Assembly: GCA_028866835.1 (NCBI GenBank) | Contig: JAGWHJ010000004.1 | Coordinates: forward strand, 1 to 60,822 | Length of the DNA stretch: 60,822 nucleotides | Direction of reading: 5' to 3' | DNA from: Candidatus Micrarchaeota archaeon | GTDB taxonomy: Archaea; Micrarchaeota; Micrarchaeia; Micrarchaeales; CABMGC01 | In this document: positions 29 through 21,994 of the stretch, in pieces | Position numbering within the stretch: the first letter of the stretch is position 1 | How the letters are laid out: each line of letters begins with the position of its first letter | The notes under the pieces: generated by a model | What the model was told of the DNA's origin: nothing | What the model saw: the letters and a program-made list of their open reading frames with translations, nothing else | Databases searched by the model: none | Position numbers and translations under genes: made by a program

Positions 29-1297
29 TTAGTGCCCAGGATACCACTCGGTTACATTGCTGGAGTTTGTGCCGCTGTTCGAATCGCCGCTGTAATCGTT
101 GAAGTCGCCATTCAGGGGCCACCAGCCTGCGAGCGCCTGCAGCGATATGGGTTCGGCCCCTATCCCGCCCATGTAAAGAGCGTGCATGTCACTCGATGAG
201 AGGCTGCTGTTGTATATTTGGACATTTGATATCGAACCATTGAAATAAGAGATCCTGGTGGGCTGTGTCTTATTGACTGGGCAAATGTTGGGCGCACAGA
301 TCGGCTGGGTGCTGTTGTCGAACTGCGCTTTTGCGAGATTTGCGCCGCTGAAGTTGGCGTTTTGCAGGTTGGAACCGGAGAAATTTGCATGCTGCGCATT
401 TGCGCCTTTGAAAATGGCGCTTTGAAGCGAAGAATTCAGCATGTCTGCATGCTGCATATTCACCCCGCTGAAGTTCGCACCTGTACCATCGGAGCATTTG
501 AACAGTGCCTGCTGCAGGTTTGCGCCCTGGAAATTCGCATTGCTTATGTTGCTGCCTTTTACAATTGCGTACTGAAGGTTTGCGCCGCTGAAGTTGGCGC
601 CTTCAAGGTCGAGGCAGGAAAGGTTAGCGCTCTGCAGATTTTTGCCTGAGAAGTTCAACGTAGTAGAACCAGCTATCGGCGCAACGCCGTTCCCTATGTA
701 AAGAAATCTTGATCTGTGTATGATATAGGAACCTCTTAGGCCCATGGTTGCCTTAAGCGTTCCGTTTATGTAAAAATTCACGGTATTGGACGTGGGAGAC
801 AATGTTACGGCAAGGTTATACCATTTGTTGGGCTGGAAATTGCCGGTGAAGCTGTATTGCCTGTCCCCGCACCCTGGCAGAAATTGCAGTGAGCTGCGAT
901 TGAGCGTCAGTTGATACCCGCAGTCAGATGTGGAGACAAGTGTCGACTGCTGGGCCTTTTGGCTCTTCATCCAAAGGTCTATAGTGATGCCTTTATTCGC
1001 AGGGGTTATGTTCAAGTAATGATTCATTGGTATGACGGCGCCGTTGGTGCGGCCATTCATTACTGGCGTAAATTCCGGCGGCCAGTTCTGGCATACGCCT
1101 TGAAGCGAGGGTGGACTCTGCACCCTGAATGCCGACTTCAGAACCGTGCAAGAACCGGGTTTTGCGGTAGGACCTTGCAAAAATGAGTTGAGTATGCCAG
1201 TCTCATAAAAGAGGACAACTACCACGGCAATAGCGACTATTGCAAAAGCATAAGTGTGCATATACTCCAAAACCGACTGGAGCTTGTACTCTCTCAT
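29..1297 (-). CDS. Class III signal-peptide (pilin-like) LamG/concanavalin-domain surface protein with inserted pentapeptide repeats
   Basis: N-terminus MREYKLQSVLEYMHTYAFAIVAIAVVVVLF is an archaeal pilin-like leader (start moved to ATG 1297). LamG motifs ITIDLWMK, NKWYNLAVT, FNGSISNVQIYN, GWWPLNG; A(N/D)(L/F)xx repeats at ~312-658. Confidence 0.8.
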   Translation of the reverse strand: MREYKLQSVLEYMHTYAFAIVAIAVVVVLFYETGILNSFLQGPTAKPGSCTVLKSAFRVQSPPSLQGVCQNWPPEFTPVMNGRTNGAVIPMNHYLNITPANKGITIDLWMKSQKAQQSTLVSTSDCGYQLTLNRSSLQFLPGCGDRQYSFTGNFQPNKWYNLAVTLSPTSNTVNFYINGTLKATMGLRGSYIIHRSRFLYIGNGVAPIAGSTTLNFSGKNLQSANLSCLDLEGANFSGANLQYAIVKGSNISNANFQGANLQQALFKCSDGTGANFSGVNMQHADMLNSSLQSAIFKGANAQHANFSGSNLQNANFSGANLAKAQFDNSTQPICAPNICPVNKTQPTRISYFNGSISNVQIYNSSLSSSDMHALYMGGIGAEPISLQALAGWWPLNGDFNDYSGDSNSGTNSSNVTEWYPGH

Positions 1298-1427
1298 ATA
1301 CCTGTTACTATCAGAGACTTTGCATCTTATATAGCATTCCTTTTGATCGCAGTATTCGATACTGCGCAACAGCGTACCTGGTCGGATTGCCGCACGTTTT
1401 ATCCAGGTAACGCCGTTTTGATGCAAT

Positions 1428-5944: not shown

Positions 5945-7291
5945 TTATGTTGTCCCTATCGTATGTGCCGGAACGGCCACGATGCGTCTCGTTTCAGCTC
6001 TAAGAAGGCTTGACAAGTCATGCCTACTGCCAAGAAGCCTCACTATGAGCTCGTGCGCAGCCTGCTCGTCCTTGTCAAAGTATGAGATGATGTCCTTTCT
6101 CACCTGTTTCTCAAGCCTCTGCATGACGAAGTAGGAAACAAGCATGTTGGAATCGTTCAGCTCATTCAGCAAAGCCCTTCCCGTCTCTCTTGAGAATTTG
6201 TTGCTGTTTGCTACATTCGAACTCTTGAACCCGAACGCCTTTGCAAATGCATCCAGATATCGGTTTGCCTGATTAAGTGTGCCATTCATTTCGGCTACGC
6301 CGTTGGCATCCATGACATGCATGTAAAGGTGTGCCTCGGCAAACAGCAACTGGTGCAGGCGGTTGATCTCTTCCACGTCGCCTTTTGAGAGCTTAGCTCC
6401 AGGGAATTTTATAACGCTTACACTGCCATCAGGATCAGTGTTGAATATGATGTCACCGGCATCTTCCATCCTTCGCGCGAGCTGATTCAATCTTGCGTCG
6501 ATTATTCCCCTGAGCAGATCATTGTTTGCCGGGTCAAATATAGAATGGTCAAGAGCGTGCCTTATCATGTCATCCAGTTCCCTTGCGCGGTAGCGCTGCT
6601 CATCCAGACCGTAACGCCTTACACTTGGAGGGTCATTAACTATGTCAATCAAGAAGGTTATACCTCTTGCAACACTTCCGCTCTGCTCGATTTCATCAAG
6701 AGCTTTCTCGAGTATCTGCATCTTTGCAAGGTTCTTCTCAACCCTTATCATCGAGGTCTGAGTCTCCCCTATGCCGATTCTCGCGGAAGCCTCCTCTGCG
6801 GCTTTCCACTGCTCGCTTACGTTATTTACCCGTGGCATGGCGTCGCCTATTACCCCCATCGCCCGCTTTAGCCTATTCCTCGCCGCCCTCCGGCTGGTCT
6901 TTGATTCATATTTACTGAACTGTTTTAACATGTCGCTTATTTCAGCAAAGTTTCTTGAGGCGAGCACGTCTTTAAGCTCCTCCCTGCTACTCTTCAGCTC
7001 GGCCTTCATTGCGTCAAGCATTTCTTTATGGTCGGGCATAGGAGTTCTCCTCGCCCTATCTACTAAATCATGTAAATCGTGATATGCTGCCGAATCACCT
7101 CTGTCTATGCTGCCACTTATGCCAGTTCTCAGGAAATTATCGAAACGGCTTGTGAGGGTAGGATCGTGTATTGCAAGGTGGTCGTTTACGTTTGACACCT
7201 CCTTTGCAAAAGCAGCAATTGTCTCGTGAATACTGCCTTCCCTAGTTTCTCTCATAACTCTTTCTACATGTCCCCTGGTTGGAAAAACCAT
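5945..7291 (-). CDS. Hypothetical helical protein, paralogue of 7389-8327
   Basis: Long ORF; start chosen at MVFPTR after GGGTAGT (alternative 7321). C-terminal half aligns with the neighbouring gene. Confidence 0.75.
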   Translation of the reverse strand: MVFPTRGHVERVMRETREGSIHETIAAFAKEVSNVNDHLAIHDPTLTSRFDNFLRTGISGSIDRGDSAAYHDLHDLVDRARRTPMPDHKEMLDAMKAELKSSREELKDVLASRNFAEISDMLKQFSKYESKTSRRAARNRLKRAMGVIGDAMPRVNNVSEQWKAAEEASARIGIGETQTSMIRVEKNLAKMQILEKALDEIEQSGSVARGITFLIDIVNDPPSVRRYGLDEQRYRARELDDMIRHALDHSIFDPANNDLLRGIIDARLNQLARRMEDAGDIIFNTDPDGSVSVIKFPGAKLSKGDVEEINRLHQLLFAEAHLYMHVMDANGVAEMNGTLNQANRYLDAFAKAFGFKSSNVANSNKFSRETGRALLNELNDSNMLVSYFVMQRLEKQVRKDIISYFDKDEQAAHELIVRLLGSRHDLSSLLRAETRRIVAVPAHTIGTT

Positions 7292-7388
7292 TATACTACC
7301 CTTCTGATAATAAGAAGTCATTATTCTAATATATTAAAATATTGCTTAAGAATGATATTAGTCCAGCCCTCTGGAAAAGCGTATATAT

Positions 7389-8327
7389 CTAGTTTTCAGT
7401 CCCCACTTCTGGCACTGCCTCCCTCTTTCCAGGCAAACCAAGCTCTTCAGTTGGCTGTTCTCCTTCTTGGCGACCTTCAACGAAATGTGCACGGACGTCT
7501 GCGCCATCGAACCTTTCCTCAAAGCCCGGACCAAGCTGCAGCTTCCTGCCGTCGACAAGCAGCCTCCTTACCAGTTCCTTTGCGGATCTCTCCCCTTCGA
7601 AGAAGTGCATTGAGAGGGCTGCTGCGAGAGGCCCGTACGTATCGCTCTGCGCCATTTCCTCATACACCTTGGCGTGGTCTCTCCTGCCGGATTCTATGTG
7701 CGGGGAAAGGTACACCATCATGGCCATACCAAGGTCGCTGGCGAATTGCATGCTGTCCGTCTTTTCGTACACCTGCCTGTTAAGCGATTCCGCCACCGCG
7801 TCGATGAAGACATTGGCATGCGTCAGCTTCTCGCTGATGCGGGCCTGCGCTTCGTCATTCCCGTTCAGGAGATGCCTGTACGCATCGAGCTGTGCAAACA
7901 ACAGAAGGTTTTCGTCGTTTATCTTCTTTATGTCATCCTCTGTAAACGTTGTGCCCTGCTTCAAGGTAGCCACCAGACCCGCACCATTTGGCGTTTCCAC
8001 TCTCTCGAAGACTACGCCGAATCCCTCTATCTTCTTTACGAACGCCTCCAGGCGCGCGTCGGCTACGGCCATCACCTCTTCGTGAGATGTCAGGGAGCCG
8101 TTCCTTGCTGCGCCTACTGCGGCATCCTTGAGCTCTCCGCCTACCTGCCTGGGCGCAGGGCGAATGTCGCGCCTTGCATGCGCTGCATTAGCTCCATTCA
8201 AGACCCTTACGTCCTCCGCGCCTAATCTGGCTTCCGAACCATATAGTCTGCGGGTTACGTCATCGTCGACCTGCTGGGGGTCGACCTTTTGTGGGCTTTT
8301 TACTCTCTGCCTTCCGTCCGCTGACAT
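7389..8327 (-). CDS. Hypothetical helical protein, paralogue of 5945-7291
   Basis: 312-aa ORF with its own TATA (TTTAAATAT near 8356-8364). Confidence 0.75.
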   Translation of the reverse strand: MSADGRQRVKSPQKVDPQQVDDDVTRRLYGSEARLGAEDVRVLNGANAAHARRDIRPAPRQVGGELKDAAVGAARNGSLTSHEEVMAVADARLEAFVKKIEGFGVVFERVETPNGAGLVATLKQGTTFTEDDIKKINDENLLLFAQLDAYRHLLNGNDEAQARISEKLTHANVFIDAVAESLNRQVYEKTDSMQFASDLGMAMMVYLSPHIESGRRDHAKVYEEMAQSDTYGPLAAALSMHFFEGERSAKELVRRLLVDGRKLQLGPGFEERFDGADVRAHFVEGRQEGEQPTEELGLPGKREAVPEVGTEN

Positions 8328-8382: not shown

Positions 8383-11300
8383 CTACTGCTTCTGCCTCCT
8401 CCTTGCCGGCCTCTGCGACCTTGCCCATCTTGAATGGCCTTTCTTGACCATCCATATGGTAAGTATTATCAGCATGCTTGCTACCAGTGCCACTCCGCCT
8501 ATCGTTCCGTAGCTTATGAGCAGCGAGCCTATGGCAACGGACTGCGTTGACGTGGTAGGGGCCCACGAATAGTCAGGCGCAGTGAATGTCTTTGAGGAGA
8601 TGAAGGAAGGATCGTACGCGACCTGTATTGGAGGCTGGTGGACAAGTATAGGCTCTGGAGGAGGGGTGCCGTAATACTGCGCTATTATGGTGTGGAAGCC
8701 TGAGCCGCACGCCATTGCCTTGAAAGAGAAGTTTCCCATAGAGTTCGTTGTTGCCACCCCGATAAGGCCGAGCTGCGATGTGCATATGCCAGTGCCGTTG
8801 TTGGCATAGGGCTGGCAATACTGCTGTGCGGGGCCGTGGGCAGCGCATGTAGCAGGCAGGTGGAAGTTGCCGTAAATGTTGCAGTTGAAAGATGGCAGTT
8901 GGAGCAGGCTTGACGGTGGCGGCGGGCACGACGCAGGGCTGGTGAACGGCACAGAGGAAGGCTTGTAGTTGACAGTATGTGCGTTAGCCATCTCGCCGGT
9001 GTAGACCGGATTCGAGTTGATGCAGCCCGCAATGGGAGGGCCCGAAGCTCCATTCCCGAAAGCGCACAGCTGCGCGTCCTTGGGATCAGTCTGCGGATTG
9101 TACTTGAAATAGTTTATGTTCTGGTCGTAATACAGATAGATGTGGCCTCCCTTGAGTGGCACAGTGTTTATGCTGAACTGCGGCCTGAAGAAGGCACTGC
9201 CGTTTATCCAGAGTGTCGTCTGGTTGGGGTTGCTTCCATCCACCACTGGTATCACATTCAGCGTAACGTTCGTCAGGTTTGCTATGTCGGCATCTATCGG
9301 CATGTAAAGGGTATTGTTGAACCGGTCATGGTATACGTAAACTAGCCTGTGGTACCCGAATATGTCCTTGGGGGTGTTCTTGGTCCCGTTGAGGTCTAGG
9401 TTGATTATTGTGGAGTACACAGGGAAGCGCTCCCAGTTGAAGAGGCTTACAAGCGCGGGGGCATTTGTCTGCGAATATGAGAAGTTGTTGTATTTGTCTA
9501 TCGTGGAGCTGGTCTTTGCGTAAGGCGCTGCGCAAGATGGTTTGTAACATGGAGGCACGATGGGCTTTGACTTGATGACCTCATAGCCAGGATACGGGCC
9601 TTGCATATGAGTCATGGTATTGAAGAGGAGCTGCCTTGTCGAATTGATTATGCCCTGATGGTTCGATGAGGGAAGAAAAGTGGCATTGATGTATATGTTT
9701 GCAAGCTTCCTGTCGGTTGCAAACTGGTATATTATCTGTGGGGGAAGGGTTGACGGCGCTATGCTCTCCTGGTAGTATGTCTGGTTTGCAAGGTATTCCG
9801 CATATGATGGCCCGCCTTCAATATTGGCGACCAGAGGCGAGGATTTTGTCCACAGGGTGTTTGCGAATGCGTACACCGTGGCTCCAGAAGTCGATGTGGT
9901 GCTTATTGAAGGGCATGACGGGCCAGGGTAGTTTGTCTGCGTTATCTGCTCTGTAAGCGAGTACGTGTAAGAGAAAGGCACTACCAGGTAGCCGCCGACT
10001 ATGCTGTTTATTGCAGTAACCGGCACTGCGGCCCCGGAGCTCGTGCTTGGAAGGTGGCAGAAAGGCCCATGATGGCCTGTCGAGCACGAAATCTTGTTTA
10101 TCTCTGTCGAGCCGAATGCGCCCTGGTAGTATGTAGGCGTCTTGCTTGGTCCTCCCGGAGCAGTAGATCCTGCCGTGAACGACGAGTAGAAGAAGTCCTC
10201 ATAAGTAAGCGTCCTTAGTGAGCCTATGCTTTCAGTGTACTCGAATGGATTATCTGCAGGATACACCAGGCCCCATATGTTGTCTATGTTTGGCTCGTAG
10301 CGGCATGTCCCGTAACCGCTCCCACTGCCAATTGCAGTAGACGCGGCCTTTTTATCAACGTAGCACTTATATAGCGGGTAGGAGAACGGCGGCCCTATCA
10401 CACCTATGTCTTTCGTGTAATTCTCCACATTGAAGTTTATGAATGCGAGGCCGCCGTGCTGGTTTGCAACATGGGCCTTGCCAGTGCCGCCGTTCAGTGA
10501 GGGCTGCGAAGGCAGGTACACCACTGCGGTGCCGTTTATGCCAACACCAAAGCTGACGCCGTCGAAGTTTGGAATGTGGCTCGTGAATGGTATGCAGCTG
10601 CCTAAGAAATGCGTGCACTCCCAGTTGCTGATGCTGGGCAGCAACGGCTGGTAGCTGCTTGGCGCGTCATGCGCATTCACAGTGCAGTTTGCTGTATTTT
10701 CATTACAGACGTTCAAGGACGTGTCCGATTTTGAGCAATGGCCGCCAAGGCAAACCTGCACTCCGCCGTCGGTGCCGGTCACATTTGCAGCGAGTATCCA
10801 GCCGTAGGGTGGGAAGTATTTCTGGGTTGGCTCGGGTATGGCCGTGGTGCCGAAATCGCCGCCTATCCAGATGTCGTTTGCGTGAGTCGGGCTTATCTGT
10901 ATGTCTGCGCCGCTCGAGTTTATCACGCGCAGCATGAGCATGTTGAACTTCACACCGCCGGTGCAGCCCTCATGAACCCCACCGATGATGATGGAACAGG
11001 TCTGACCGTACCTTGCGCCCCAGTTGTCAAGCACGTAGAGGTAACCGTTTATGTCCTGTATGCCAAGCGGGTAGTGCCAGCAGTCCCTGTCGAGCTGTCC
11101 TGATGCAGCATTGTTATCGCCGATGTTTGCGTTCCCGTCAAGTATCGCCGCAAGGTCTGCTGCGGCCTTGCTTGTCCCGGTCCTTGGGTTTATGCCCTCA
11201 AAGCCTCCCGACAGGAAGTAACTTGAGATGTTGAGGTCCGGTATCGTATCCTCGATCGGGCTGAAAAGGCCGTGCCCACAGCCGTTGTTTATGGTCCCGC

Positions 11301-14300
11301 ACGTCTTTGTGTCCGAGAACACAAGATCGAAGCAGCCTACGTAGTCGAGGGTGTTTGCGTCATATGCAAGTATGTTGTGGTCTTTCGGATCCGCGACGTA
11401 CAGCAACGCGCCCGTTGGAGATGCGGTTATCTCAAGCCATTGGGACCCTTCCTGCGGTGCGCACCCTGTGACAGCGCCATGGCAGAACTCGACGGGGTCG
11501 ATGATGAAGTTGCCGGTCACCTGCCTATCAAGCTCATTTCCTGTGATGGTATTAGATATCCTTACAATGAACGGATACGAAAACTGGTCTGACATGGTGT
11601 CCGTAAAGTTAACTGAACCAGTAAGGTAGACTGTGCCGAAACTGTCTGCACTGACATTATATGCCGTGAATCCGCTGTAGGTAAGTCCAGTATGGGCGGC
11701 ATATTTTTTTATTCTGAGGATATTCCCTACATCTGGGTATATGGCGTTGACAACGTAAGTTGAGCCGTTTTGCAGGCCTATGACGGTGCCCCAGTAGGAG
11801 CCCCAGTTGCTGTCCCACGTGCCCTGGTCGGTTTCGGATGTGAGGCTGTTGGGCTGCAGTATGCTGCTGTTGTACTCGCCGTGCGCAAGGAGCTTTGCGA
11901 CAAACACCAGCTGTGCAGGGGACGAGGAGGAGGGAGGTGGCGGCGTAGGGCTTGGTGAGCCTGATGGGGCGCCGCTAAGCGTGCTTATGAACTTGAAAAA
12001 GTCCTGGCCCTGCGGCGTAGCGCCTGCGCCGTTGCCTAGGAAGGCGGCGAGCGCATCTCCTACTGCTGTAGGGTCGGCCCAACCTATCTCCGTGCAGCCG
12101 CCGGGCATGTTGCCTATTACCTGGCCGGTAGTCACGCGCTCCCCTGCTGTCACAGTGGGGGTGAAGCCCTCAGCATAGTATATATACTGGCGCGGATAGC
12201 CCCCTGAAACGGAATCTGGTGGTAGGGGATGGTCTAGCCTAAGCACGACGAATGCATCGTTGCCACAGTAGTTCCAGCCGCTATTGGTCAGGGGGCTCAG
12301 TATCGTTCCGGAGCCCACTGCGAGAAGTTGGCAACCTGATGTGCCTGCCCAGTCCACGCCTTCGTCTATCCATGGGCCACCGCTGCTGGTGTGGTCAAGA
12401 ATACAGCTTGAGCTCACGGGATAGGTATAACCTGAGGTGCTTACCGCGCCGCTCGTGCCTCCTGCACCTGCACTTGTGCCGAGTATGTACATGTAGTCGC
12501 TGGATATTGCCGTAATGGAATCGGCCTGTATGCCTATCGAACCGGGGCCGCCGCTGGTGGGTTGAGTGGCTGATGAAGAGCCAAGGCATGCGCCTCCCTT
12601 GCTTCCTGTCCAGGGATATGGATAATCAGATGGTATTGGGCCTACGCACGGCAGAGAAGCACCCGCCTTTGAGATCATGTCAAGCACGTGCGTGGGGTAC
12701 CAGCAATCAGGGCCTACCTCAGGTGGTGTACAACTGCCCCCATTTCCAGGGTTATTGCACTGTGCAGTCGGGGAGCCGCCGTTGTATGAGCATAGTGCCT
12801 CCCACCAGCCGTTGTACTGGTTTATGAGTGGTACGAAGAACTTCGCGGATGCTATGGCCTGCGCAAGGAAGTCAGATGGTGAGCAGCCGCTCAAAGCGTT
12901 GGGGTCCTGCCCCTCTTTTGACATATCGCTGGTGCTCAGGCCAAACCAGCCGCCGTAGCCCGCGCTGTTCGTTGTCGGGTAGCATGTGCCACCAGATTCC
13001 TGCATCTCCACGGATGCGATAATGACATCGGGGATGCCAGTCTGTGTTGATGCTTGCTCGATGTACGGAACCTGCCACGCGTCTGATCCAAGAAGTATAC
13101 TTGCGAGTGCAGAGCTCGGCGTTGCTGAGCTGCCTCCGCCACCCACATTAGGAGCGGAGATAAGGCTTATTATGTTCTGCTCGTTGTTCACATCGAAGCC
13201 CAAGCCGCTGCCGTCGCTGCTCCTTCCGAATGCTGTGAGGTTTGTGCCTTCCGCAGGACCAGCGCCAAGGGATCCGCCGATGTTAACCGAACTCCATGGA
13301 AGGCCTCCGCCTCCGCCCGGGCAGTTCTCTCCGCTGTATGAAGTTGGCATGTCACCGCAGAAGTACTGGCTACCTGGTTCGTAGGTCTGCCACTGGCAGA
13401 AGGTGTGGCCAGGGACCGGAGATGGACAGGCGACACCGTTCCAACCGCCCTGTGCTTGAGAATCATGAGTATAATGATATGCAGCCTGCATCGAGCACAA
13501 CGGGTTCCACCACCAGTCGGTTCCAGTGGTGCATTTGGAGCCATCGTAGCTACCTCCTAGTCCAGGACCCATCTGGAGAAGACCGAGGTTGGAGCCGAGC
13601 TGTGCACCTGGCTGGAAAGAGCTTTCTTTGTCTGCAATCGACACTATTATCATGAGCTGGTCTCCGGAAAATCCAGCCGCCTTGGCGCAGTCGACAACCT
13701 GAGCAAATGTTAATGCGTCAGACGAACCTGGGGTGTAAGCCTGATTCGGGCAGTTGCCACTTGACGATGTGCCCGTATGGTACTCTGCGAAGAAGAGCGA
13801 TGGAGTGTTTATGTGGAATGGATCCTCATGGTTGGTAGGGCCGTAGTAATTCCAGGGGCTGTATATGTCATAGGAAACGCTCAGGTTAAGTGCCTTCGAC
13901 ACGAGGTTCAGATTAGACACATTTGATTTCATTATTAGATATGGAAGCACCTGGGTGTTGAAGCTTGTTGTTGCACTGCCTGGCCACGTAACCTCGGTGT
14001 ACGGTATGTAGCTGTTCCTGAAGTTGCTGAGCGAGTACGTTACGGCATAGTCATAGGTGTAAGAGCAGGAAGCTGTGCTGTACGAAAGACCAGTCAGTGT
14101 TTTGGTGAAAGATATGGGTGGCACGTTCGCGAAGTTCGCATACCTTGCATTCCAGGTCCATATGGCCCTCTGGCCGTTCAACGGGAACGTGTCCCATATG
14201 TTCTCCGCAGTGGAAAATGCGGTGGAAACGTTGCGGTTGACTTCAGGGGTGTAGGCCCATTCATTGATGGCAAGGGTTGCAGGTTTTATTATATTGACGC

Positions 14301-14727
14301 TCGCCGAGGCGCTTGGAAGGCCGCCGCTGTTATAGGTTATTGAAAGGAGGGCATCGACAGTGCTGTGCAGCTGGTTCGTATTAGCAAGGCACTGGTCCCC
14401 GGCTATGAACGAGGCAGGGTCAGTATAGAAGTACTGTGGGTTGGTGGGGCTCTTCTCTGGGACCTGCGGGCAGGTTATATACCATGCGGCGTTGTTATTG
14501 TTATACTGCGCCACGGAGCTTGCCGGAGAGTATATCCTTGTGGGACCTGTCGATACCACAGGTGGCTTGCTTACGTGTGAATATGAGGTAGAGAACGGCT
14601 GGAGATAGTGATATGATACGGTGGTTGCATGGGCATTAGGAATTAGAACCATGAATAGCAGAGAGCTAAGGAGCGCCAATGCTAGGGTAATTCTCCTGGT
14701 ACCCATGGATTTCATATAGCTATTCAC
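8383..14727 (-). CDS. Giant (2114 aa) membrane-anchored surface protein with two SLT/lysozyme-like domains and an M23-like domain
   Basis: Signal peptide (RRITLALALLSSLLFMVLIPNAHA). SLT1: KESS..GLLQM. SLT2: QESGG..ALCSYNGG. M23-like: DEGVDW..AVGSGTI..VTAGERVTTGQVIG. C-terminal TM plus basic tail; GTGA overlap with the upstream gene. Confidence 0.85.
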   Translation of the reverse strand: MNSYMKSMGTRRITLALALLSSLLFMVLIPNAHATTVSYHYLQPFSTSYSHVSKPPVVSTGPTRIYSPASSVAQYNNNNAAWYITCPQVPEKSPTNPQYFYTDPASFIAGDQCLANTNQLHSTVDALLSITYNSGGLPSASASVNIIKPATLAINEWAYTPEVNRNVSTAFSTAENIWDTFPLNGQRAIWTWNARYANFANVPPISFTKTLTGLSYSTASCSYTYDYAVTYSLSNFRNSYIPYTEVTWPGSATTSFNTQVLPYLIMKSNVSNLNLVSKALNLSVSYDIYSPWNYYGPTNHEDPFHINTPSLFFAEYHTGTSSSGNCPNQAYTPGSSDALTFAQVVDCAKAAGFSGDQLMIIVSIADKESSFQPGAQLGSNLGLLQMGPGLGGSYDGSKCTTGTDWWWNPLCSMQAAYHYTHDSQAQGGWNGVACPSPVPGHTFCQWQTYEPGSQYFCGDMPTSYSGENCPGGGGGLPWSSVNIGGSLGAGPAEGTNLTAFGRSSDGSGLGFDVNNEQNIISLISAPNVGGGGSSATPSSALASILLGSDAWQVPYIEQASTQTGIPDVIIASVEMQESGGTCYPTTNSAGYGGWFGLSTSDMSKEGQDPNALSGCSPSDFLAQAIASAKFFVPLINQYNGWWEALCSYNGGSPTAQCNNPGNGGSCTPPEVGPDCWYPTHVLDMISKAGASLPCVGPIPSDYPYPWTGSKGGACLGSSSATQPTSGGPGSIGIQADSITAISSDYMYILGTSAGAGGTSGAVSTSGYTYPVSSSCILDHTSSGGPWIDEGVDWAGTSGCQLLAVGSGTILSPLTNSGWNYCGNDAFVVLRLDHPLPPDSVSGGYPRQYIYYAEGFTPTVTAGERVTTGQVIGNMPGGCTEIGWADPTAVGDALAAFLGNGAGATPQGQDFFKFISTLSGAPSGSPSPTPPPPSSSSPAQLVFVAKLLAHGEYNSSILQPNSLTSETDQGTWDSNWGSYWGTVIGLQNGSTYVVNAIYPDVGNILRIKKYAAHTGLTYSGFTAYNVSADSFGTVYLTGSVNFTDTMSDQFSYPFIVRISNTITGNELDRQVTGNFIIDPVEFCHGAVTGCAPQEGSQWLEITASPTGALLYVADPKDHNILAYDANTLDYVGCFDLVFSDTKTCGTINNGCGHGLFSPIEDTIPDLNISSYFLSGGFEGINPRTGTSKAAADLAAILDGNANIGDNNAASGQLDRDCWHYPLGIQDINGYLYVLDNWGARYGQTCSIIIGGVHEGCTGGVKFNMLMLRVINSSGADIQISPTHANDIWIGGDFGTTAIPEPTQKYFPPYGWILAANVTGTDGGVQVCLGGHCSKSDTSLNVCNENTANCTVNAHDAPSSYQPLLPSISNWECTHFLGSCIPFTSHIPNFDGVSFGVGINGTAVVYLPSQPSLNGGTGKAHVANQHGGLAFINFNVENYTKDIGVIGPPFSYPLYKCYVDKKAASTAIGSGSGYGTCRYEPNIDNIWGLVYPADNPFEYTESIGSLRTLTYEDFFYSSFTAGSTAPGGPSKTPTYYQGAFGSTEINKISCSTGHHGPFCHLPSTSSGAAVPVTAINSIVGGYLVVPFSYTYSLTEQITQTNYPGPSCPSISTTSTSGATVYAFANTLWTKSSPLVANIEGGPSYAEYLANQTYYQESIAPSTLPPQIIYQFATDRKLANIYINATFLPSSNHQGIINSTRQLLFNTMTHMQGPYPGYEVIKSKPIVPPCYKPSCAAPYAKTSSTIDKYNNFSYSQTNAPALVSLFNWERFPVYSTIINLDLNGTKNTPKDIFGYHRLVYVYHDRFNNTLYMPIDADIANLTNVTLNVIPVVDGSNPNQTTLWINGSAFFRPQFSINTVPLKGGHIYLYYDQNINYFKYNPQTDPKDAQLCAFGNGASGPPIAGCINSNPVYTGEMANAHTVNYKPSSVPFTSPASCPPPPSSLLQLPSFNCNIYGNFHLPATCAAHGPAQQYCQPYANNGTGICTSQLGLIGVATTNSMGNFSFKAMACGSGFHTIIAQYYGTPPPEPILVHQPPIQVAYDPSFISSKTFTAPDYSWAPTTSTQSVAIGSLLISYGTIGGVALVASMLIILTIWMVKKGHSRWARSQRPARRRQKQ

Positions 14728-15489: not shown

Positions 15490-17913
15490 TCATGCGGTCG
15501 AGTTTGCGGTTGAATTGTAGATTATCCTGAATATCTTCGTGTCCTGGTTGTAGTAGACCATCCGCAGCTTCGCGATGTTGTTGTCCCACACGCACGCGTA
15601 GGTGTTGCAGAAGAAGAGCCATTTTATCATGTTGCTGTTGGCCAGCCCGGGTTCCATGACATAGGATCCTGTCAGGTTGATGAACAGGCCCGGCCTCGGC
15701 TTGCCCGAGTACATGACGATGACGCTCTGGTTTATGGTCTTGTTAGTGCGGTACGGGTTGGTGAAGATGCTGAAGTTTGAGTTGTCTATGTCGAAAAACG
15801 CCACGGCGTCGAAGTAGTAGTTGCCGTTCGGCCCGGGCAGGTACGCGCTTATGCTCGTGCCGTTGGTCGTGAGGTTCCTCGCTATGTTGACGGTGAAATT
15901 GCCCTGGGGCGTCTTTATGCCGAGCAGCTTGTTGGTGGAGTTCTCGTTCTCCGTGAACGAGATGGCGGATTCTAGGCCGTACGCCTGCGTGTTGTTGGGG
16001 TTGAGCCCGGATTCAACGTATATGCCGTCAGTCTCGAGCAGCCACGGCGTCCTCACAAGCAGGTAGTCCGGCTTCCCGTTTATCGGGCTGAGGAGGAACC
16101 GCGGGTCGTCGCTAGAGTTGAGTATCCAGGTGGCGAACGGGAGCGCCTTCGTGCCGTTCTGCGAGCCGACGCTGTCGGTCACGCTGGTCCTGTTCGCCAC
16201 GCCCTCCACGAGCGAGCCGTCCGGCCAAAGCGTCAGCACGACGCTGCTGTTTGCCGAATTGCCCTTGAACCACTGAAGGGCGCTTATGAACGACGGGTTT
16301 ATCGAATCCGCAGGGCTGAGGTTGCTCCCGTATATGCCATCGTAGTATACGAGCACAACCCCTATCAGCACCATGAAGAGGAGCATGGCCGCCGCGGTTA
16401 CGTACATTGCGCGCCTGTTGGAGAGCGAGAGCGAGAACGAGAGCAGCCAGTACAGCGTGTATGCTGACATTATCGCGAGCGGAACGGAGAGCAGGGAATT
16501 GAACCTTATCGCGTGCATCTCAAGGTATGCCGTCAGTATGAAATACGAAAAGACCACTATGAATCCGGGATTTATGTCGAAGCGTATCTTGGCCTTCCCT
16601 GAAAGGAGGCCTGTCCCTGAATCATAGACCTGCATGAAGAAGTAGGGTATGAACGAGAGGACGGCGATGAGCCATATCAGCAGTATTACCAGCGACGACT
16701 GCGGCAGCACGGATGCAAGCCATATGAAAGCGGACATTGGCGTAGTAAGCAGGGAGTAGCCGAAGCTTGCGAAGAGGAACTGCGATGTAGGGGGCTGGAG
16801 CTCCTGGATCGTGGCCCCGAAGTTGTTCGTTATGATGAAGCCGTTGGTGACGAAGATCGCGGTGACGGTGCTCGGGAAGGCGACGTAGAATGCAATGGTT
16901 CCGACAATCGACACGATGAACACGAACGCCATCCTGTGAATGGCATTCTTCGTGAACATGATGAACGACATGCGATTCTTCGAGAGCCAGTAGAGAAGGG
17001 CCCAGAAGGCGATTATCATAACCAGTATCGGTATGAAATCGAAGCCGGTGAAGGTCTGTATGCTTATGTACCCCAGCGCCAGGTACATGCGCACGAGCAC
17101 GAACCATATTACCAGTGTTGCTATGAGGTAGCCGCAATCGTGCAGCAGGTTCTCCCTGTCCCAGATGTAGGCGACGAAGAGCAGCACCATGAGCGATACT
17201 ATGAACGCTGCTGTGGCGAAAGGCGCGCCGTTCCACACGAGGTTGCATACGGACAGGAGCACTGCAGATGCGACGCAGAATATTATCTTCCAGTTCCTTT
17301 TCTGCGCCCTGGATACCTCTATGGCGAAGACCAGCGCGAGTATGAAGAAGAACGGAAGGAACGTGTCGCCTCGGTATATGGTGCCGCTCGTCCTTGCCGC
17401 GTCGCCCAGGCTCAGTGCAACGAAGAGCATTGCAAGGAGGCCGAACAGGCGGTCCTTGCTCATGTATCTTGACAGGAGGTATGCGCCGAGTATGTCCAGG
17501 AACGCGAAGAGTATGGGTATGAGGCGCATTATCGTGTAATAGCTTACACCAAGCCTGCCTATTATGAAATACGGGACAAGTGTGATCCAGTAGAGGCCAT
17601 CGGGCTCGCCGACGGGGGCGTGCTGCGGCCAGCCAGAGATGCCAAGCGCCTTCGGGACCGCGAAGCCGTTGTTTATTGCAGCCCTTACTACGGAGAAATG
17701 GTAGAAGCCATCGGGCTCGTAGAAGCCGAAGAACTGCAACAAGGAGATTCTGTATATTATAGTGAAGTAGGCTATGGCGATGAGCAGTGCTATGACAACT
17801 ATTATCGCAACGTATTTGTTCTGAAGGATGGTCTGGACCTTCGATGGGGCCTGCGGCTCGGATGAAACATCCTCGGCGGCTACATTGCTATAATGATGCC
17901 TCAAATCAATCAA
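15490..17913 (-). CDS. aglB: Oligosaccharyltransferase AglB/STT3, paralogue 1
   Basis: EPDGFYH, RGD, TIQE and LWPDG (WWDYG-like) motifs; ~13 TM plus extracellular C-domain. Confidence 0.85.
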   Translation of the reverse strand: MIDLRHHYSNVAAEDVSSEPQAPSKVQTILQNKYVAIIVVIALLIAIAYFTIIYRISLLQFFGFYEPDGFYHFSVVRAAINNGFAVPKALGISGWPQHAPVGEPDGLYWITLVPYFIIGRLGVSYYTIMRLIPILFAFLDILGAYLLSRYMSKDRLFGLLAMLFVALSLGDAARTSGTIYRGDTFLPFFFILALVFAIEVSRAQKRNWKIIFCVASAVLLSVCNLVWNGAPFATAAFIVSLMVLLFVAYIWDRENLLHDCGYLIATLVIWFVLVRMYLALGYISIQTFTGFDFIPILVMIIAFWALLYWLSKNRMSFIMFTKNAIHRMAFVFIVSIVGTIAFYVAFPSTVTAIFVTNGFIITNNFGATIQELQPPTSQFLFASFGYSLLTTPMSAFIWLASVLPQSSLVILLIWLIAVLSFIPYFFMQVYDSGTGLLSGKAKIRFDINPGFIVVFSYFILTAYLEMHAIRFNSLLSVPLAIMSAYTLYWLLSFSLSLSNRRAMYVTAAAMLLFMVLIGVVLVYYDGIYGSNLSPADSINPSFISALQWFKGNSANSSVVLTLWPDGSLVEGVANRTSVTDSVGSQNGTKALPFATWILNSSDDPRFLLSPINGKPDYLLVRTPWLLETDGIYVESGLNPNNTQAYGLESAISFTENENSTNKLLGIKTPQGNFTVNIARNLTTNGTSISAYLPGPNGNYYFDAVAFFDIDNSNFSIFTNPYRTNKTINQSVIVMYSGKPRPGLFINLTGSYVMEPGLANSNMIKWLFFCNTYACVWDNNIAKLRMVYYNQDTKIFRIIYNSTANSTA

Positions 17914-18491: not shown

Positions 18492-19706
18492 TCATCCCTG
18501 CCTGGAACTGAGGAACCTGAGCAGAAGGAATGCAAACAAGATTAATACGATTATTGCGATTATATAGAGATATAAATCAGATGGTATGCCGCTGCCCTGG
18601 CCCTGCGCCGATGACGTGTAGTTCCGGGAGATGTTCTGCTTGGCCGTGGTGGGCATGGTCGAAGGAGCAGATGATGTTTGAGGCGCCGTAGTTACACTGG
18701 TGCTCGGCTGAGACTCGAAGCCCAGCAATGCCCTAGGAACTCCAGAAAGCCGTATGGTCTCATTGTCAGGCAGATTCCCCTCTGTCACTGACGCATCGCC
18801 GCCTGCCTGACTTACCGCGAGCCCTTGCGCGGCCTCCTGCGTGTTGAGGCCGAACGTCGCTGCCGTTGGGAACGGCTGCAGTGCGCTTCCGTTCTGGTAC
18901 CCTATCCACAATTCTGCGTTTGTTTTCGTGAAAGCCGATATCTCGCCGCTGCCCTCCCCGCCTATCACAAGCTCGTCGTCGTAGAAGTTTGTTGAGTTCG
19001 GTCCCGTGGATGAGGGCGTGTAGTAGTACGGAGTTACAAGGAAATGCACGCTTGTCGAGTGAATGTTGAACGTGACATTGTCGTAGTAGAAGGTGGTGCC
19101 GTTCTGGTAGTATCCGAACTGGGCTACGGGAAGGCCGTTTGCGATGTACACGCGCATCACCGGTATAAAGCGCACAGGATAGCCGTACGGCACCGTGTAA
19201 TTGGGGAAATAGCTGTAGAAGGTGTCGTTTGCGCTCGCGCTGGCCGTGGAGTTGAAGATGCCGCCGTATCCGGAGATCGTCCCGTTGGAGACGTTCGCAA
19301 CGATGTCGCTCATGTTCCAGAGATTGTCCCCTATCGAATAGGTATGGTTGCTGGTGTTCATGTCAAGCACGTCCTGCAGCCAGTAGGAGTAGGCCTTCCC
19401 GGAACCGGACGTGATGTTTATCACTGCGTTGAGTTGCACCGTAGCGCCCTCCGCAGAGGTATTCTGCGGCGGAGTCGCGTTGTAGGCGTACATGGAATTG
19501 ACAAGCGCGTAACCCACCACCTCGTTAGTCTCGACGCGGTACGGCCCGCTGTCGTTCGAGATGTTGTAGAGGCCGTAGCTTGCTATGCCCACTGCGGCCG
19601 GAGCCGATGAGTTGATGTATGCGAGCGGGGCGACGAGCGCCTGCGCGTGTGCGCACATAGGCATTGCGGCAGCGATAAGCATGACTGCGATAAGCGCATA
19701 TCTCAT
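18492..19706 (-). CDS. Thermopsin-family acid protease, membrane anchored
   Basis: GIASYGL, VQLNAV, YWLQDV, DNLWN and ELVIGGEGSG motifs; signal peptide from ATG 19706 (ATGA overlap with topA stop); C-terminal TM. Confidence 0.85.
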   Translation of the reverse strand: MRYALIAVMLIAAAMPMCAHAQALVAPLAYINSSAPAAVGIASYGLYNISNDSGPYRVETNEVVGYALVNSMYAYNATPPQNTSAEGATVQLNAVINITSGSGKAYSYWLQDVLDMNTSNHTYSIGDNLWNMSDIVANVSNGTISGYGGIFNSTASASANDTFYSYFPNYTVPYGYPVRFIPVMRVYIANGLPVAQFGYYQNGTTFYYDNVTFNIHSTSVHFLVTPYYYTPSSTGPNSTNFYDDELVIGGEGSGEISAFTKTNAELWIGYQNGSALQPFPTAATFGLNTQEAAQGLAVSQAGGDASVTEGNLPDNETIRLSGVPRALLGFESQPSTSVTTAPQTSSAPSTMPTTAKQNISRNYTSSAQGQGSGIPSDLYLYIIAIIVLILFAFLLLRFLSSRQG

Positions 19707-21994
19707 TGGCCATCGCCGCTCTCGTTTTTCGGGGGCTTCTTCGGGCCTGCGGCTCTTTTCGCCTTCCTTGGCTTCCTCTTTTTCTCTGCTCCTGGGGCGG
19801 CTTCGGTCTTCGCCGCGGAGCGCTTGCCCCTGGCCGGCTTTGCTGCCGTGGCTGGCGCGGCGGCGTGCGCCTGCACGGCAATCTTTATGGTTTCTTTCTG
19901 TGCCGGCTGCTTTGCGGCCCTTTCCGCAGTCGCAGGTGACATTCCCTGCTCGGTTACCTTGTTCGCCCAGCCGGCCTTCGTCGGGCATGCGGGGTCGAGG
20001 TCCATCTCAAAGACCTTCTTGTCCCTCCTGAAGACCTTTATCCTCGGCGTGTGGCAGATCTCGCAGACCTTCCCTGTCGGTACGATCTTGGCGTTCTGCG
20101 GCACGGAGTAGGTCTTGTTGCACCTGGGCCAGTCGCTGCAGCCGACGAAGGTCTTGCCCATCCTCGACCTCCTGAGCAGCAGGTTGCCGTTCCCGCACGT
20201 GCACTTTCCGAGGGAGCTCTGGAGCTCGCTCTGGGCGAGCCCTTTCATGAGCTCGTCGCCTATGCTGGGCTCGTTGGTGGTGAACTCCGTTATTATCGAT
20301 GTTATTATGCCCTTCCCTTCCTTCAGCACGGCCTCCTTCTGCTTCATGCCCTTTGCTATCTCGTCCATGTCCTTCTCGAGCCTGCGCGTCATGTCCTCGT
20401 CGAGGATCTGGCCGCAGTACTTGGAGAGGGCGTTGTAGACGCTCATACCGAAGCCCGTCACCTCTATGCTGGCGTTCCTTATGTACTCCCTCCTGAAGAG
20501 CGTGTCTATGACCTCGGTCCTCGTCGCCTTGGTGCCCAGGTCCTTGCTTTCGAGCAATGAGATAAGACTCGCCTTAGTGTAGCGCTTGGGCGGTAGCGTC
20601 TTGAGCTCCTTAATGTCCGACTTCAGCTGCGAGAGCCTCTCGCCCTGGTCGAAGTGCGGCATCTCGCTCGTCTTCGGTTTGTAATGCAGATAGAAATCAA
20701 GCCAGCCGGGGCTCTTTATCGTGTCGCCCTTTGCTGCGTAAGTCTCCTCTGCCACCTGGAGCACGACTCTCGATTCCTGCAGCACAGCGCGGTCAGCGAA
20801 GCACGAGAGGAAGCGCCTTGCGACAAGGTCGTATACCTTCTCCTCCTCGTCATTGAGCCTCTGCGGGAACTCTCCGGTGGGGTATATTGCTGGGTGCGCC
20901 TCGTCCTCCTTCGCGCCTTCGATGGGCCTGAATCTTTTCTCAGAGGTGAGCTTCTCGGCAAGCGCCGAGTACTTGTCCACCTTGGCTAGCATCGAGATTA
21001 TCCTGGGCAGGTTCAGCGTAGCCGGAAGCTTCTGCGAGGACGTCCTTGGATAGGAGATGTACGAGCGCTCGTAGAGCACCTGCGCTATGGCCAGCGTCCT
21101 TGTCGGGTCGATCCTGTGCACGCGGTTCGCCTCGAGCTGCAGCGATGTGAGGTCGAAGGGAGGGAACGGGTACAGCGTCTTCTCCCTGCTCTCGACGGTC
21201 TTGACCGTGGCCTCGCCCTTCCTGGCCTGCTCGTGTATCCTCTGGGCGAGAGCCTTGTCGAAGATCTCGCCCCTTGAGTTGTCGAATGCGACGTTCCTTG
21301 CGAGTATGGTGACCCTCCAGTAAGGCTTGGGGACGAAGTCCTTTATCTCGAGCTCGCGCCTCGCCAGTATGCCTAGGGTCGGACCCTGCACCCTGCCTAT
21401 GCTCAGCGTCTTCCTGACGCCTTTCTTTGTGAGCGCGCGCATGAGCGCCCTGCTCATGTTTATGCCCCAGAACCAGTCCAGAGTGTGCCGGGTCTCACCG
21501 GCATCGAAGTTGCCCCTGTCGAACTCGTTCAGGTGCTCATAGGACTGTATGAGGTCCTGGTTAGTAGTTGTCGAGAAGCGCATCCTCATCACGTTGTGCG
21601 ATGACATCGGCCGGTTCACGTCGCCCGTGGTCACGAACCCTATTATGTTCGTCCCTATGACAGTTCCTTCTATGTCGTAGTCGCATGCGTTGATGAAGAA
21701 CTGGCACTTCTTCCCTATGCTCTCTATCGCGTCGAGGTACTTCTTCGTGTAGTAGGATTCCTTGTTGACCTTGTACGATGCGACCCACTCTATGTCGAAG
21801 AGCGGGATGCTGCCCTCGGCCTTCGCCCGTATCGTGAAGAGATGTCCTGCCGCGGCCACGATGAAGACGTTGTCCTGGCCCTGCTGGAGCTCGTAGTATC
21901 TTATGCCGTTGAAGTAGTTGGTCCTCGGCTTCCCCAAGGCCATGGCTATCCTGAGCGCAACGCTTGGCTTCTCTGCCACGATGAGCTTATTCAT
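19703..21994 (-). CDS. topA: DNA topoisomerase IA
   Basis: IVAEKPSVA, DYDIEG, SIGRVQGPTL, YISYPRT, zinc ribbon and Lys-rich tail. Confidence 0.97.
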   Translation of the reverse strand: MNKLIVAEKPSVALRIAMALGKPRTNYFNGIRYYELQQGQDNVFIVAAAGHLFTIRAKAEGSIPLFDIEWVASYKVNKESYYTKKYLDAIESIGKKCQFFINACDYDIEGTVIGTNIIGFVTTGDVNRPMSSHNVMRMRFSTTTNQDLIQSYEHLNEFDRGNFDAGETRHTLDWFWGINMSRALMRALTKKGVRKTLSIGRVQGPTLGILARRELEIKDFVPKPYWRVTILARNVAFDNSRGEIFDKALAQRIHEQARKGEATVKTVESREKTLYPFPPFDLTSLQLEANRVHRIDPTRTLAIAQVLYERSYISYPRTSSQKLPATLNLPRIISMLAKVDKYSALAEKLTSEKRFRPIEGAKEDEAHPAIYPTGEFPQRLNDEEEKVYDLVARRFLSCFADRAVLQESRVVLQVAEETYAAKGDTIKSPGWLDFYLHYKPKTSEMPHFDQGERLSQLKSDIKELKTLPPKRYTKASLISLLESKDLGTKATRTEVIDTLFRREYIRNASIEVTGFGMSVYNALSKYCGQILDEDMTRRLEKDMDEIAKGMKQKEAVLKEGKGIITSIITEFTTNEPSIGDELMKGLAQSELQSSLGKCTCGNGNLLLRRSRMGKTFVGCSDWPRCNKTYSVPQNAKIVPTGKVCEICHTPRIKVFRRDKKVFEMDLDPACPTKAGWANKVTEQGMSPATAERAAKQPAQKETIKIAVQAHAAAPATAAKPARGKRSAAKTEAAPGAEKKRKPRKAKRAAGPKKPPKNESGDGQ

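Follow-up and report, generated by a model that had tools for sequence, protein, structure and literature searches.

What use does an archaeon with a reduced genome have for domains known from enzymes that degrade the bacterial cell wall? The question is raised by a giant gene on contig JAGWHJ010000004.1 of a Candidatus Micrarchaeota archaeon (assembly GCA_028866835.1; genome 1.09 Mb, 40 contigs, 88% complete). We analysed the entire 60.8-kb contig (60,822 nucleotides), which is referred to here as the window. The gene (positions 8383 to 14727, minus strand) codes for a surface protein that carries a cassette of three domains: two of the lytic transglycosylase/lysozyme type (SLT1 and SLT2) and a third with the M23/LytM peptidase fold. 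Our reading, to which we assign a probability of about 0.6, is that this is a functional, contact-dependent cassette of the phage-tail type that breaches murein and is mounted on an adhesin-like stalk. The catalysis, substrate, topology and, above all, purpose of the cassette are what we infer from the observations described below.

An earlier interpretation made from the DNA letters without database searches (the sequence-only reading) had described a protein of 2114 aa with a signal peptide, a C-terminal transmembrane helix and a three-domain cassette. The open reading frame (ORF) is indeed uninterrupted, the two terminal features can be read from the sequence, and the motifs IADKESSF (residue 364), GLLQM (382), EMQESGG (574) and ALCSYNGG (644) are located where they had been placed; the positions of all features are collected in Table 1. 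The public gene call (P0002) has 2107 aa and is seven codons shorter at the N-terminus than the ORF, which puts the start at Met8 (window 14706). The single hydrophobic helix (2064-2094) is followed by a basic tail of 20 residues. With a signal peptide and one C-terminal transmembrane helix, about 2030 residues should be extracellular, and the predicted product is probably a type-I membrane-anchored, N-glycosylated giant surface protein. It contains 26 N-X-S/T sequons, of which only one falls into residues 320-930, where 7.5 are expected (binomial P 0.0016). Gly/Ser/Pro linkers separate the two SLT-type domains and the M23/LytM-fold domain. The GC content at third codon positions (GC3) is 0.59 in the cassette vs 0.61-0.65 elsewhere in the gene, which suggests that the insert is not recent but old and adapted. 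Family searches with the whole protein (NCBIfam, 0 families), with the N-terminal domain (Pfam, none) and with the body (Pfam, none over the cut-off) gave no assignment, and the ESM Atlas held no usable match for the body or the N-terminal domain.

The tandem SLT domains that had been proposed are confirmed by family, profile and alignment data. Searched with the whole protein, Pfam SLT (PF01464) reaches 27.5 bits in two stretches (cut-off 21.3). Single-sequence phmmer searches of SLT1, SLT2 and the M23-like domain against the PDB sequences yielded nothing meaningful, and profiles were needed. A profile built from SLT1 and six relatives matches c-type lysozyme (E 8.4e-4), MltC (E 1.3e-3) and also EmtA in the PDB, and aligns the ESxF motif of SLT1 onto the catalytic Glu of lysozyme C. 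The corresponding profile of SLT2 and eight short relatives matches EmtA (E 3.4e-3) with ESGG aligned, as well as EtgA and goose lysozyme. The pair Glu368-Ser369 is invariant in all seven rows of the SLT1 alignment, as is Glu577-Ser578 in all nine rows of the SLT2 alignment.

For the third domain, homology to M23 peptidases is found with a profile, and Pfam M23 (PF01551) stays below its cut-off of 28.7 bits (16.4 bits in the whole protein, 22.1 for the domain alone). The profile, made from 43 sequences, matches LytM (E 3.1e-7) and also lysostaphin in the PDB and covers the core from GVDY to VxxGxxIG. Among its 43 members, 37 have a Pfam M23 match and 17 match a PHROG endolysin family; the domain of the window alone has no PHROG match. 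The AlphaFold model of the domain has a pLDDT of 89.3, and the Foldseek rows against the PDB, listed to rank 49, are of the LytM type (M23 fold), three of them at E <= 1e-3 and with TM-scores of 0.37-0.51. The zinc-binding and catalytic motifs of M23/LytM enzymes are HxxxD and HxH.

A number of observations weigh against a working, murein-breaching cassette. Taken singly, SLT2 (19.9-20.8 bits) and SLT1 (17.6 bits) both fall just below the Pfam SLT cut-off of 21.3. AlphaFold gave a poor model for SLT1 (pLDDT 60.5), and the Foldseek rows listed for it to rank 50, although nearly all lysozymes and lytic transglycosylases, have E >= 0.5 throughout; because of this weak model and these non-significant rows, the structure is taken only as consistent with a lysozyme-like fold. 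In the M23-like domain the residues at the motif sites are D788-E-G-V-D792, Y-Y-A-E853 and I-E880-I-G-W, so that the canonical His ligands are absent, and the only His residues in the domain (779 and 833) are both not conserved. The catalytically inactive LytM domains of EnvC, DipM and SpoIIQ are among its Foldseek matches. Furthermore, a wall-hydrolase cassette is present in only about 7 of 41 related genomes, a minority of one family, and can therefore not be essential to the lifestyle of the lineage. Lastly, the hosts reported for cultivated Micrarchaeota are wall-less Thermoplasmatales (PMC5498576; preprint 10.1101/2021.04.28.441871). The modelling with AlphaFold and Foldseek that the sequence-only reading had suggested thus supports the fold of its M23-like domain, while the defining metal-ligand motifs are missing, and for SLT1 it returns lysozyme-type rows without significance.

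The loss of HxxxD and HxH, the divergence of both SLT domains and the presence of Csd2 beside EnvC, DipM and SpoIIQ among the fold matches could also mean that the domains are inactive and contribute to adhesion in a lectin-like manner, by binding walls or glycans, comparable to the degenerate LytM domains that act as regulators. We consider this unlikely. A degenerate LytM domain no longer has its site residues, but in 127 of 134 aligned relatives Asp788, Asp792, Glu853 and Glu880 are all four present, copies from phage tape-measure proteins included (the other rows are mostly gaps, and one row has His in the Glu853 column). The invariance of Glu-Ser in both SLT alignments likewise argues against binding modules. 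Judged from this alignment, the M23-like domain is no decayed LytM domain but belongs to a subfamily of its own, which lacks the His ligands and has kept a carboxylate site. This subfamily may be an undescribed catalytic variant of M23, and its four conserved carboxylates could stand for a new chemistry of peptidoglycan hydrolysis or for a metal site adapted to acid. Besides phage tape-measure proteins and Actinomycetota genomes, the subfamily (relatives P0003-P0151; L033:5977-6405) occurs in short proteins, which according to the alignment have a hydrophobic C-terminal segment and are without an N-terminal signal peptide.

Comparison with the related genomes revealed how the cassette is mounted. 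Matches to the whole protein were found in 34 of the 41 genomes, 19/24 in the family of the window and 13/15 in the sister family; the count of 34/41 takes in the window's own genome (G000) and the unpublished G038. In the relatives these matches span residues ~40-325 and ~933-2112, and residues 320-930 are matched in few genomes. The SLT1 profile was detected in 6/41 genomes, which all belong to the window's family and have the domain always inside the giant ORF, and in 0/15 genomes of the sister family. The M23-like profile was found in 2/41 (G000 and G024, both within the giant ORF) and NlpC/P60 in 1/41 (G012). We scanned the slot or the N-terminal extension in ten orthologues. The slot of G012 contains two SLT1-type domains and NlpC/P60 (2.2e-9), that of G011 a phage tail lysozyme (7e-15), that of G023 an SLT domain (2.7e-11), that of G024 SLT1 together with the M23-like domain and that of G008 SLT1; in the slots or extensions of G002, G029, G032 and G016 no wall hydrolase was recognised. 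The cassette (residues 320-930) is a variable insert; the slot that accepts it lies after the N-terminal domain and before the body. The sequence-only reading had asked for a comparison of orthologues to see where the cassette is present, and this comparison showed it to be swappable; the conserved scaffold had been missed.

The scaffold itself, consisting of N-terminal domain, long body and transmembrane anchor, is presumably a conserved surface or adhesion protein of the lineage, and as it is without a cassette in most relatives, its basic role should be independent of the cassette. The slot shows how archaea with reduced genomes can re-arm one scaffold by swapping domains with phage and bacterial lysins. 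In the orthologue of G007 (L025, G007:C2), PKD repeats (E 7e-23) make up an N-terminal extension located before the conserved N-terminal domain, and the long N-terminal extensions of some orthologues indicate that the scaffold has a second variable region. The orthologue of G029 (L024, G029:C36) has an extension of ~890 residues ahead of the N-terminal domain, with low-complexity-type matches only. The giant ORF of G002 (G002:C24:35243-38707; L008/L022) contains one in-frame TGA within the match, for which a sequencing error, a broken gene or recoding are possible explanations.

The same picture was obtained with public proteins. At E <= 1e-10 the body has 37 matches among them. Murein-hydrolase domains appear in the precomputed Pfam annotation of 15 of these proteins, 19 have none and three have other families. 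The domains found among the 15 are NlpC/P60 (7), SLT_3 (7), CHAP (1), M23 (1), Phage_lysozyme2 (1) and SLT (1), and relatives carry names such as 'C40 family peptidase [Candidatus Micrarchaeota archaeon]' and 'phage tail tip lysozyme [Candidatus Marsarchaeota archaeon]'. The window's full set of three domains does not occur in any of the proteins collected; SLT1 is combined with the M23-like domain in four and SLT2 with the M23-like domain in one.

Relatives of the cassette domains are found in bacteria and phages. Residues 320-920 were used for an exhaustive HMMER search, in which 158 proteins matched at E <= 1e-3, and by BLAST among all proteins collected 128 match the M23-like part only, most of those in the HMMER list being ~165-450 aa long. 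The relatives of SLT1 are mostly other giant proteins and those of SLT2 are short (~245 aa). Short M23-like proteins were not detected in any of the 41 archaeal genomes; the short protein P0010 has relatives in five metagenome-assembled genomes of Actinomycetota and Solirubrobacterales. Among nine longer M23-like matches, six contain a lysozyme-type domain (SLT, SLT_3, phage tail lysozyme or Rpf-type transglycosylase), and in five of these six the M23-like domain is recognised by Pfam. One of the longer proteins, P0143, is a phage minor-tail/tape-measure protein with PhageMin_Tail, SLT and M23, the latter two in the same order as in the window; in P0007 the M23-like domain is joined to a phage tail lysozyme. 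On a viral contig from IMG/VR (L033), a tape-measure protein of 2004 aa ends in an M23-like domain with 42% identity to the copy of the window (E 4e-23).

Other searches for relatives remained without result: tblastn found no match in cultured phages for the M23-like domain, SLT2 or P0010, nor in plasmids for the M23-like domain, P0143 had no relative in viral contigs, and a word-indexed search with residues 320-920 among long proteins returned only the giant protein itself. As for the suggested phylogeny of the M23 module, a FastTree was calculated from 140 M23-like domains (the 134 aligned sequences, G024 and five Actinomycetota loci; 129 rows are unlabelled). In the tree the window's copy falls into no well-supported clade; a single origin of the archaeal copies was neither supported nor contradicted by it, and therefore no donor was drawn.

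With bacterial and phage relatives on one side and a metagenome-type contig on the other, the gene might be an assembly chimera, or bacterial contamination fused into an archaeal gene. This is very improbable. An independent Logan contig of 11,420 bp, whose run may be the source sample, covers positions 11500-14200 and shows 0 differences. Contigs of low coverage from other runs agree with the window throughout their overlaps, and one of them bridges the junction between cassette and body (11774-12092); parts of the stretch that lack cover in runs X2-X4 were left out of account. In addition, the reading frame is unbroken, the GC3 of the cassette resembles that of the rest of the gene, and SLT1-type domains are located in the same slot of orthologous ORFs in five other genomes. 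A chimeric assembly, which had been named among the observations that would overturn the prediction, is thus not what was found. Two of the runs (X2 and X3, labelled mine drainage vs soil and from different studies) show identical contig pieces and depths and are maybe one data set filed twice; they were therefore not counted as independent.

In the mechanism that we propose, a murein-lytic cassette inserted between the N-terminal domain and the body of a surface scaffold would be located near the N-terminus and thus at the membrane-distal end of the stalk. It would consist of two glycan cleavers of the single-Glu lysozyme/SLT type, followed by the M23-fold domain with its carboxylate site. 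On contact, the glycan strands of bacterial murein would be cut and the stem peptides probably also, whereby the archaeon could attach itself to nearby bacteria or sacculi or break through their walls. The mode would be similar to that of phage tape-measure and tail lysins, with a local hole in the peptidoglycan opened from the outside. That glycan-cutting and peptide-cutting families recur together in the slot points to murein rather than to another glycan. This recurring pairing, together with its presence in phage tape-measure proteins, makes bacterial murein the likeliest substrate and local, contact-dependent breaching the likeliest mode.

A different substrate would be a polymer of N-acetylglucosamine other than murein, such as the chitin of acidophilic fungi or glycans of the glycocalyx or S-layer of an archaeal host, and no bacterial partner would then be implied. 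Some enzymes of the lysozyme superfamily act on chitin, the fold rows of SLT1 contain a GH23 chitinase (3w6e), and c-type lysozymes are the nearest matches of the SLT1 profile. The wall-less cultivated hosts fit this possibility, as does the report that the Micrarchaeon is unable to make activated sugars, yet has a glycosylated S-layer (10.1101/2021.04.28.441871). We nevertheless regard a non-murein substrate as quite unlikely: the slot partners M23-like, NlpC/P60 and CHAP are families that hydrolyse peptide or amide bonds of murein and recur across members, phage tape-measure proteins that attack bacterial walls contain the same combination, a glycosidase plus an M23-like domain, and the fold rows pointing to chitinase are all non-significant.

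The sequence-only reading had also argued that the cassette is composed of families specific for bacterial murein, which this archaeon would not make itself. This part is supported: the cassette combines glycan cutters with a fold typical of stem-peptide cleavage, and the genome (88% complete) contains only one Mur-ligase-type gene (Mur_ligase_M), which makes it unlikely that the archaeon produces its own murein or pseudomurein. With this one match, remodelling of the archaeon's own wall was rejected as a function of the cassette.

As to the purpose of a murein-breaching cassette, attachment to a bacterial host or prey is possible, and we propose it tentatively. The sequence-only reading had implied such a bacterial host or prey outright, which was overstated, since the bacterial partner was an inference. 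Antagonism, or the clearing of a path in a biofilm, has a low probability. The same holds for the scavenging of nutrients from dead sacculi in a biofilm, which would not involve living bacteria. A reduced genome with a dependent lifestyle could profit from such a source, and a cultivated Micrarchaeon is reported to be unable to make activated sugars (10.1101/2021.04.28.441871). However, the enzyme is membrane-anchored and not released, and enzymes of murein recycling were not recognised in the genome: AnmK reached 17.4 bits, which is below the cut-off, and MurQ and NagZ (GH3) were not found. Since the genome is 88% complete, the missing enzymes speak only weakly against pure scavenging.

A more far-reaching version is that a Micrarchaeota-like sub-clade from acid mines captured lytic modules of phage tails (SLT, phage lysozyme, His-free M23, NlpC/P60 and CHAP) and mounted them swappably on the tip of its stalk, where they would breach the walls of living bacteria. 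This combination is rather doubtful. If true, it would mean cross-domain episymbiosis or predation in a phylum with only wall-less archaea as known hosts, and the His-free Asp/Asp/Glu/Glu M23 fold, which phage tape-measure proteins also have, would represent a murein peptidase with a new type of catalysis. If a conserved surface protein has a murein-lytic tip in some genera only, some members of the lineage would be in contact with bacteria, exploiting or fighting them, and the question of host range becomes testable with strains that have or lack the cassette.

The sequence-only reading had presented the locus as the best candidate for an undescribed system, a claim that does not hold. Giant extracellular GH23/SLT proteins of up to ~3000 aa (fam00969) have been reported from Pacearchaeota and Woesearchaeota; they have been interpreted as proteins that attach to the walls of bacteria or break them down, so that hosts or prey would be bacterial, and are reportedly mostly absent from other lineages (2021, PMC8204110; Vigneron et al. 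2022, PMC9723730). Since giant lytic-transglycosylase proteins of DPANN archaea have thus been published together with the inference of bacterial hosts, the idea is not new, and the name 'C40 family peptidase [Ca. Micrarchaeota]' is already in use at NCBI. By description, the protein of the window resembles the fam00969 type as a giant extracellular protein with a lytic-transglycosylase domain from a small-genome DPANN archaeon. It differs in its second SLT domain and its His-free M23-fold domain, in the location of the cassette in a swappable slot of a scaffold that is mostly cassette-free in relatives, and in its homologues, which are named Ca. Micrarchaeota or 'Marsarchaeota'; no named Woese- or Pacearchaeota proteins were present among the cassette (HMMER) and body matches.

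With virion-associated peptidoglycan hydrolases of phages the cassette shares the order of a lysozyme/SLT glycosidase followed by a His-free M23-like domain (P0143; L033), and like phage tail modules it would attack the wall at the point of contact, from the outer side and over a small area. Tape-measure proteins of enterococcal phages are also said to hold lytic transglycosylases. Unlike the phage modules, the cassette is carried by a cellular, membrane-anchored archaeal surface protein that is not part of a virion and is without a tail domain (neither PhageMin_Tail nor another tail family was found in it by Pfam). LytM and lysostaphin, zinc endopeptidases of MEROPS family M23, share the fold and the homology of the core profile, but in the window DxGVD takes the place of HxxxD, YYAE stands at the third site and IExGW replaces HxH, and Pfam remains below the cut-off.

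Hydrolases of Gram-positive conjugative elements (CwlT, PrgK and TraG type) are membrane-anchored, combine a lysozyme or SLT domain with an NlpC/P60, CHAP or LytM peptidase and open the wall locally. The pairing of glycosidase and peptidase type on a membrane-anchored protein is common to them and the window protein, whereas the scaffold of the latter is unrelated and ten times larger. A conjugation-type reading was set aside, as no conjugation family was found in the 10 neighbouring ORFs scanned; VirB4/VirD4 were not sought across the rest of the window.

From the cultivated Micrarchaeota Mia14, very large surface proteins with PKD, Kelch/YVTN and CARDB-like domains have been described and proposed to function in cell-cell contact (PMC5498576). 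By this description they resemble the window protein in being very large, secreted or anchored and on the surface, and unlike in the window, wall-hydrolase domains are not mentioned in the passages on these proteins (PMC5498576). A description of the cassette in Micrarchaeota was likewise not found in the passages of the literature examined, and supplementary gene lists may bear on this. Within these searches, four points appear to be new: that such a cassette is present in a family labelled Micrarchaeota, that a conserved scaffold offers a slot in which lytic domains are swapped, that the module has affinity to phage tape-measure proteins, and that there is a His-free M23-fold subfamily.

Table 1. 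Features of the giant gene and of the two genes upstream of it, with positions in the window.
Feature	Position	Strand	Basis or remark
Whole ORF, 2114 aa from GTG	8383..14727	(-)	open frame; likely true start Met8 at 14706 = 2107 aa
Signal peptide, residues 8-34 (MGTRR..., RR, hydrophobic core, AHA)	14626..14706	(-)	read directly from sequence
N-terminal domain, residues 35-319, conserved	13771..14625	(-)	residues ~40-325 matched in many relatives, including orthologues without cassette
SLT1, Cys-rich lysozyme-superfamily domain, residues 320-470; proposed catalytic Glu368-Ser369, then GLLQM	13318..13770	(-)	Pfam, profile, alignment, model
Gly/Ser-rich linker, residues 471-544	13096..13317	(-)	sequence
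SLT2, SLT/GH23-type domain, residues 545-690; Glu577-Ser578 and SYNGG	12658..13095	(-)	Pfam, profile, alignment
M23/LytM-fold domain without His ligands, residues 766-919; conserved Asp788, Asp792, Glu853, Glu880	11971..12432	(-)	profile, model, alignment
Pro/Ser linker, residues 920-937, connects cassette to body	11917..11970	(-)	sequence; junction bridged by independent contig
Body/stalk, residues 938-2063, conserved, rich in N-glycosylation sequons	8539..11916	(-)	matches in relatives
C-terminal transmembrane helix (2064-2094) and basic cytoplasmic tail (2095-2114)	8386..8538	(-)	read from sequence
245-aa protein: N-terminal hydrophobic segment, many sequons, C-terminal transmembrane helix	14724..15461	(-)	upstream; no Pfam family
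807-aa polytopic membrane protein with large C-terminal extracytoplasmic part	15490..17913	(-)	upstream; no Pfam or PDB sequence match

The genes around the giant gene are cellular and archaeal in type and include those for a thermopsin, a GCD14-type tRNA methyltransferase, topoisomerase I and an MscS channel. The 245-aa protein encoded directly upstream is probably a small glycosylated surface protein, and its gene overlaps the giant gene by 4 bases and is thus possibly co-transcribed with it. No RNA data set is listed among the runs that contain the stretch. In G011 and G002 (L020, L022), too, the giant gene is directly preceded by a sequence that encodes the C-terminus of the 807-aa protein, which suggests that the two genes form a conserved pair; in the other eight loci fetched, the upstream flanks are short. 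An oligosaccharyltransferase-like function of the 807-aa protein was considered and dropped, as it has no Pfam or PDB sequence match. An S-layer protein was rejected as an identity of the giant protein, in which PF05123 was not found by Pfam; the published S-layer protein of Micrarchaeota is reported to be a 101 kDa protein with PF05123 (10.1101/2021.04.28.441871).

Just downstream of the giant gene, two adjacent genes (5945-7321 and 7389-8327, both on the minus strand) code for apparently cytoplasmic paralogues without a Pfam family, which share 25% identity over 172 aa (E 9e-11). Further away, a gene at 29-1426 (minus strand) encodes a protein of 465 aa with a LamG/concanavalin-like domain and pentapeptide repeats; an expansion of LamG-like proteins has been noted for a cultivated Micrarchaeon (PMC5498576). 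The thermopsin-family acid protease (E 4e-59) is encoded at 18492-19988 on the minus strand and fits the label 'mine drainage metagenome' of the runs that hold the stretch.

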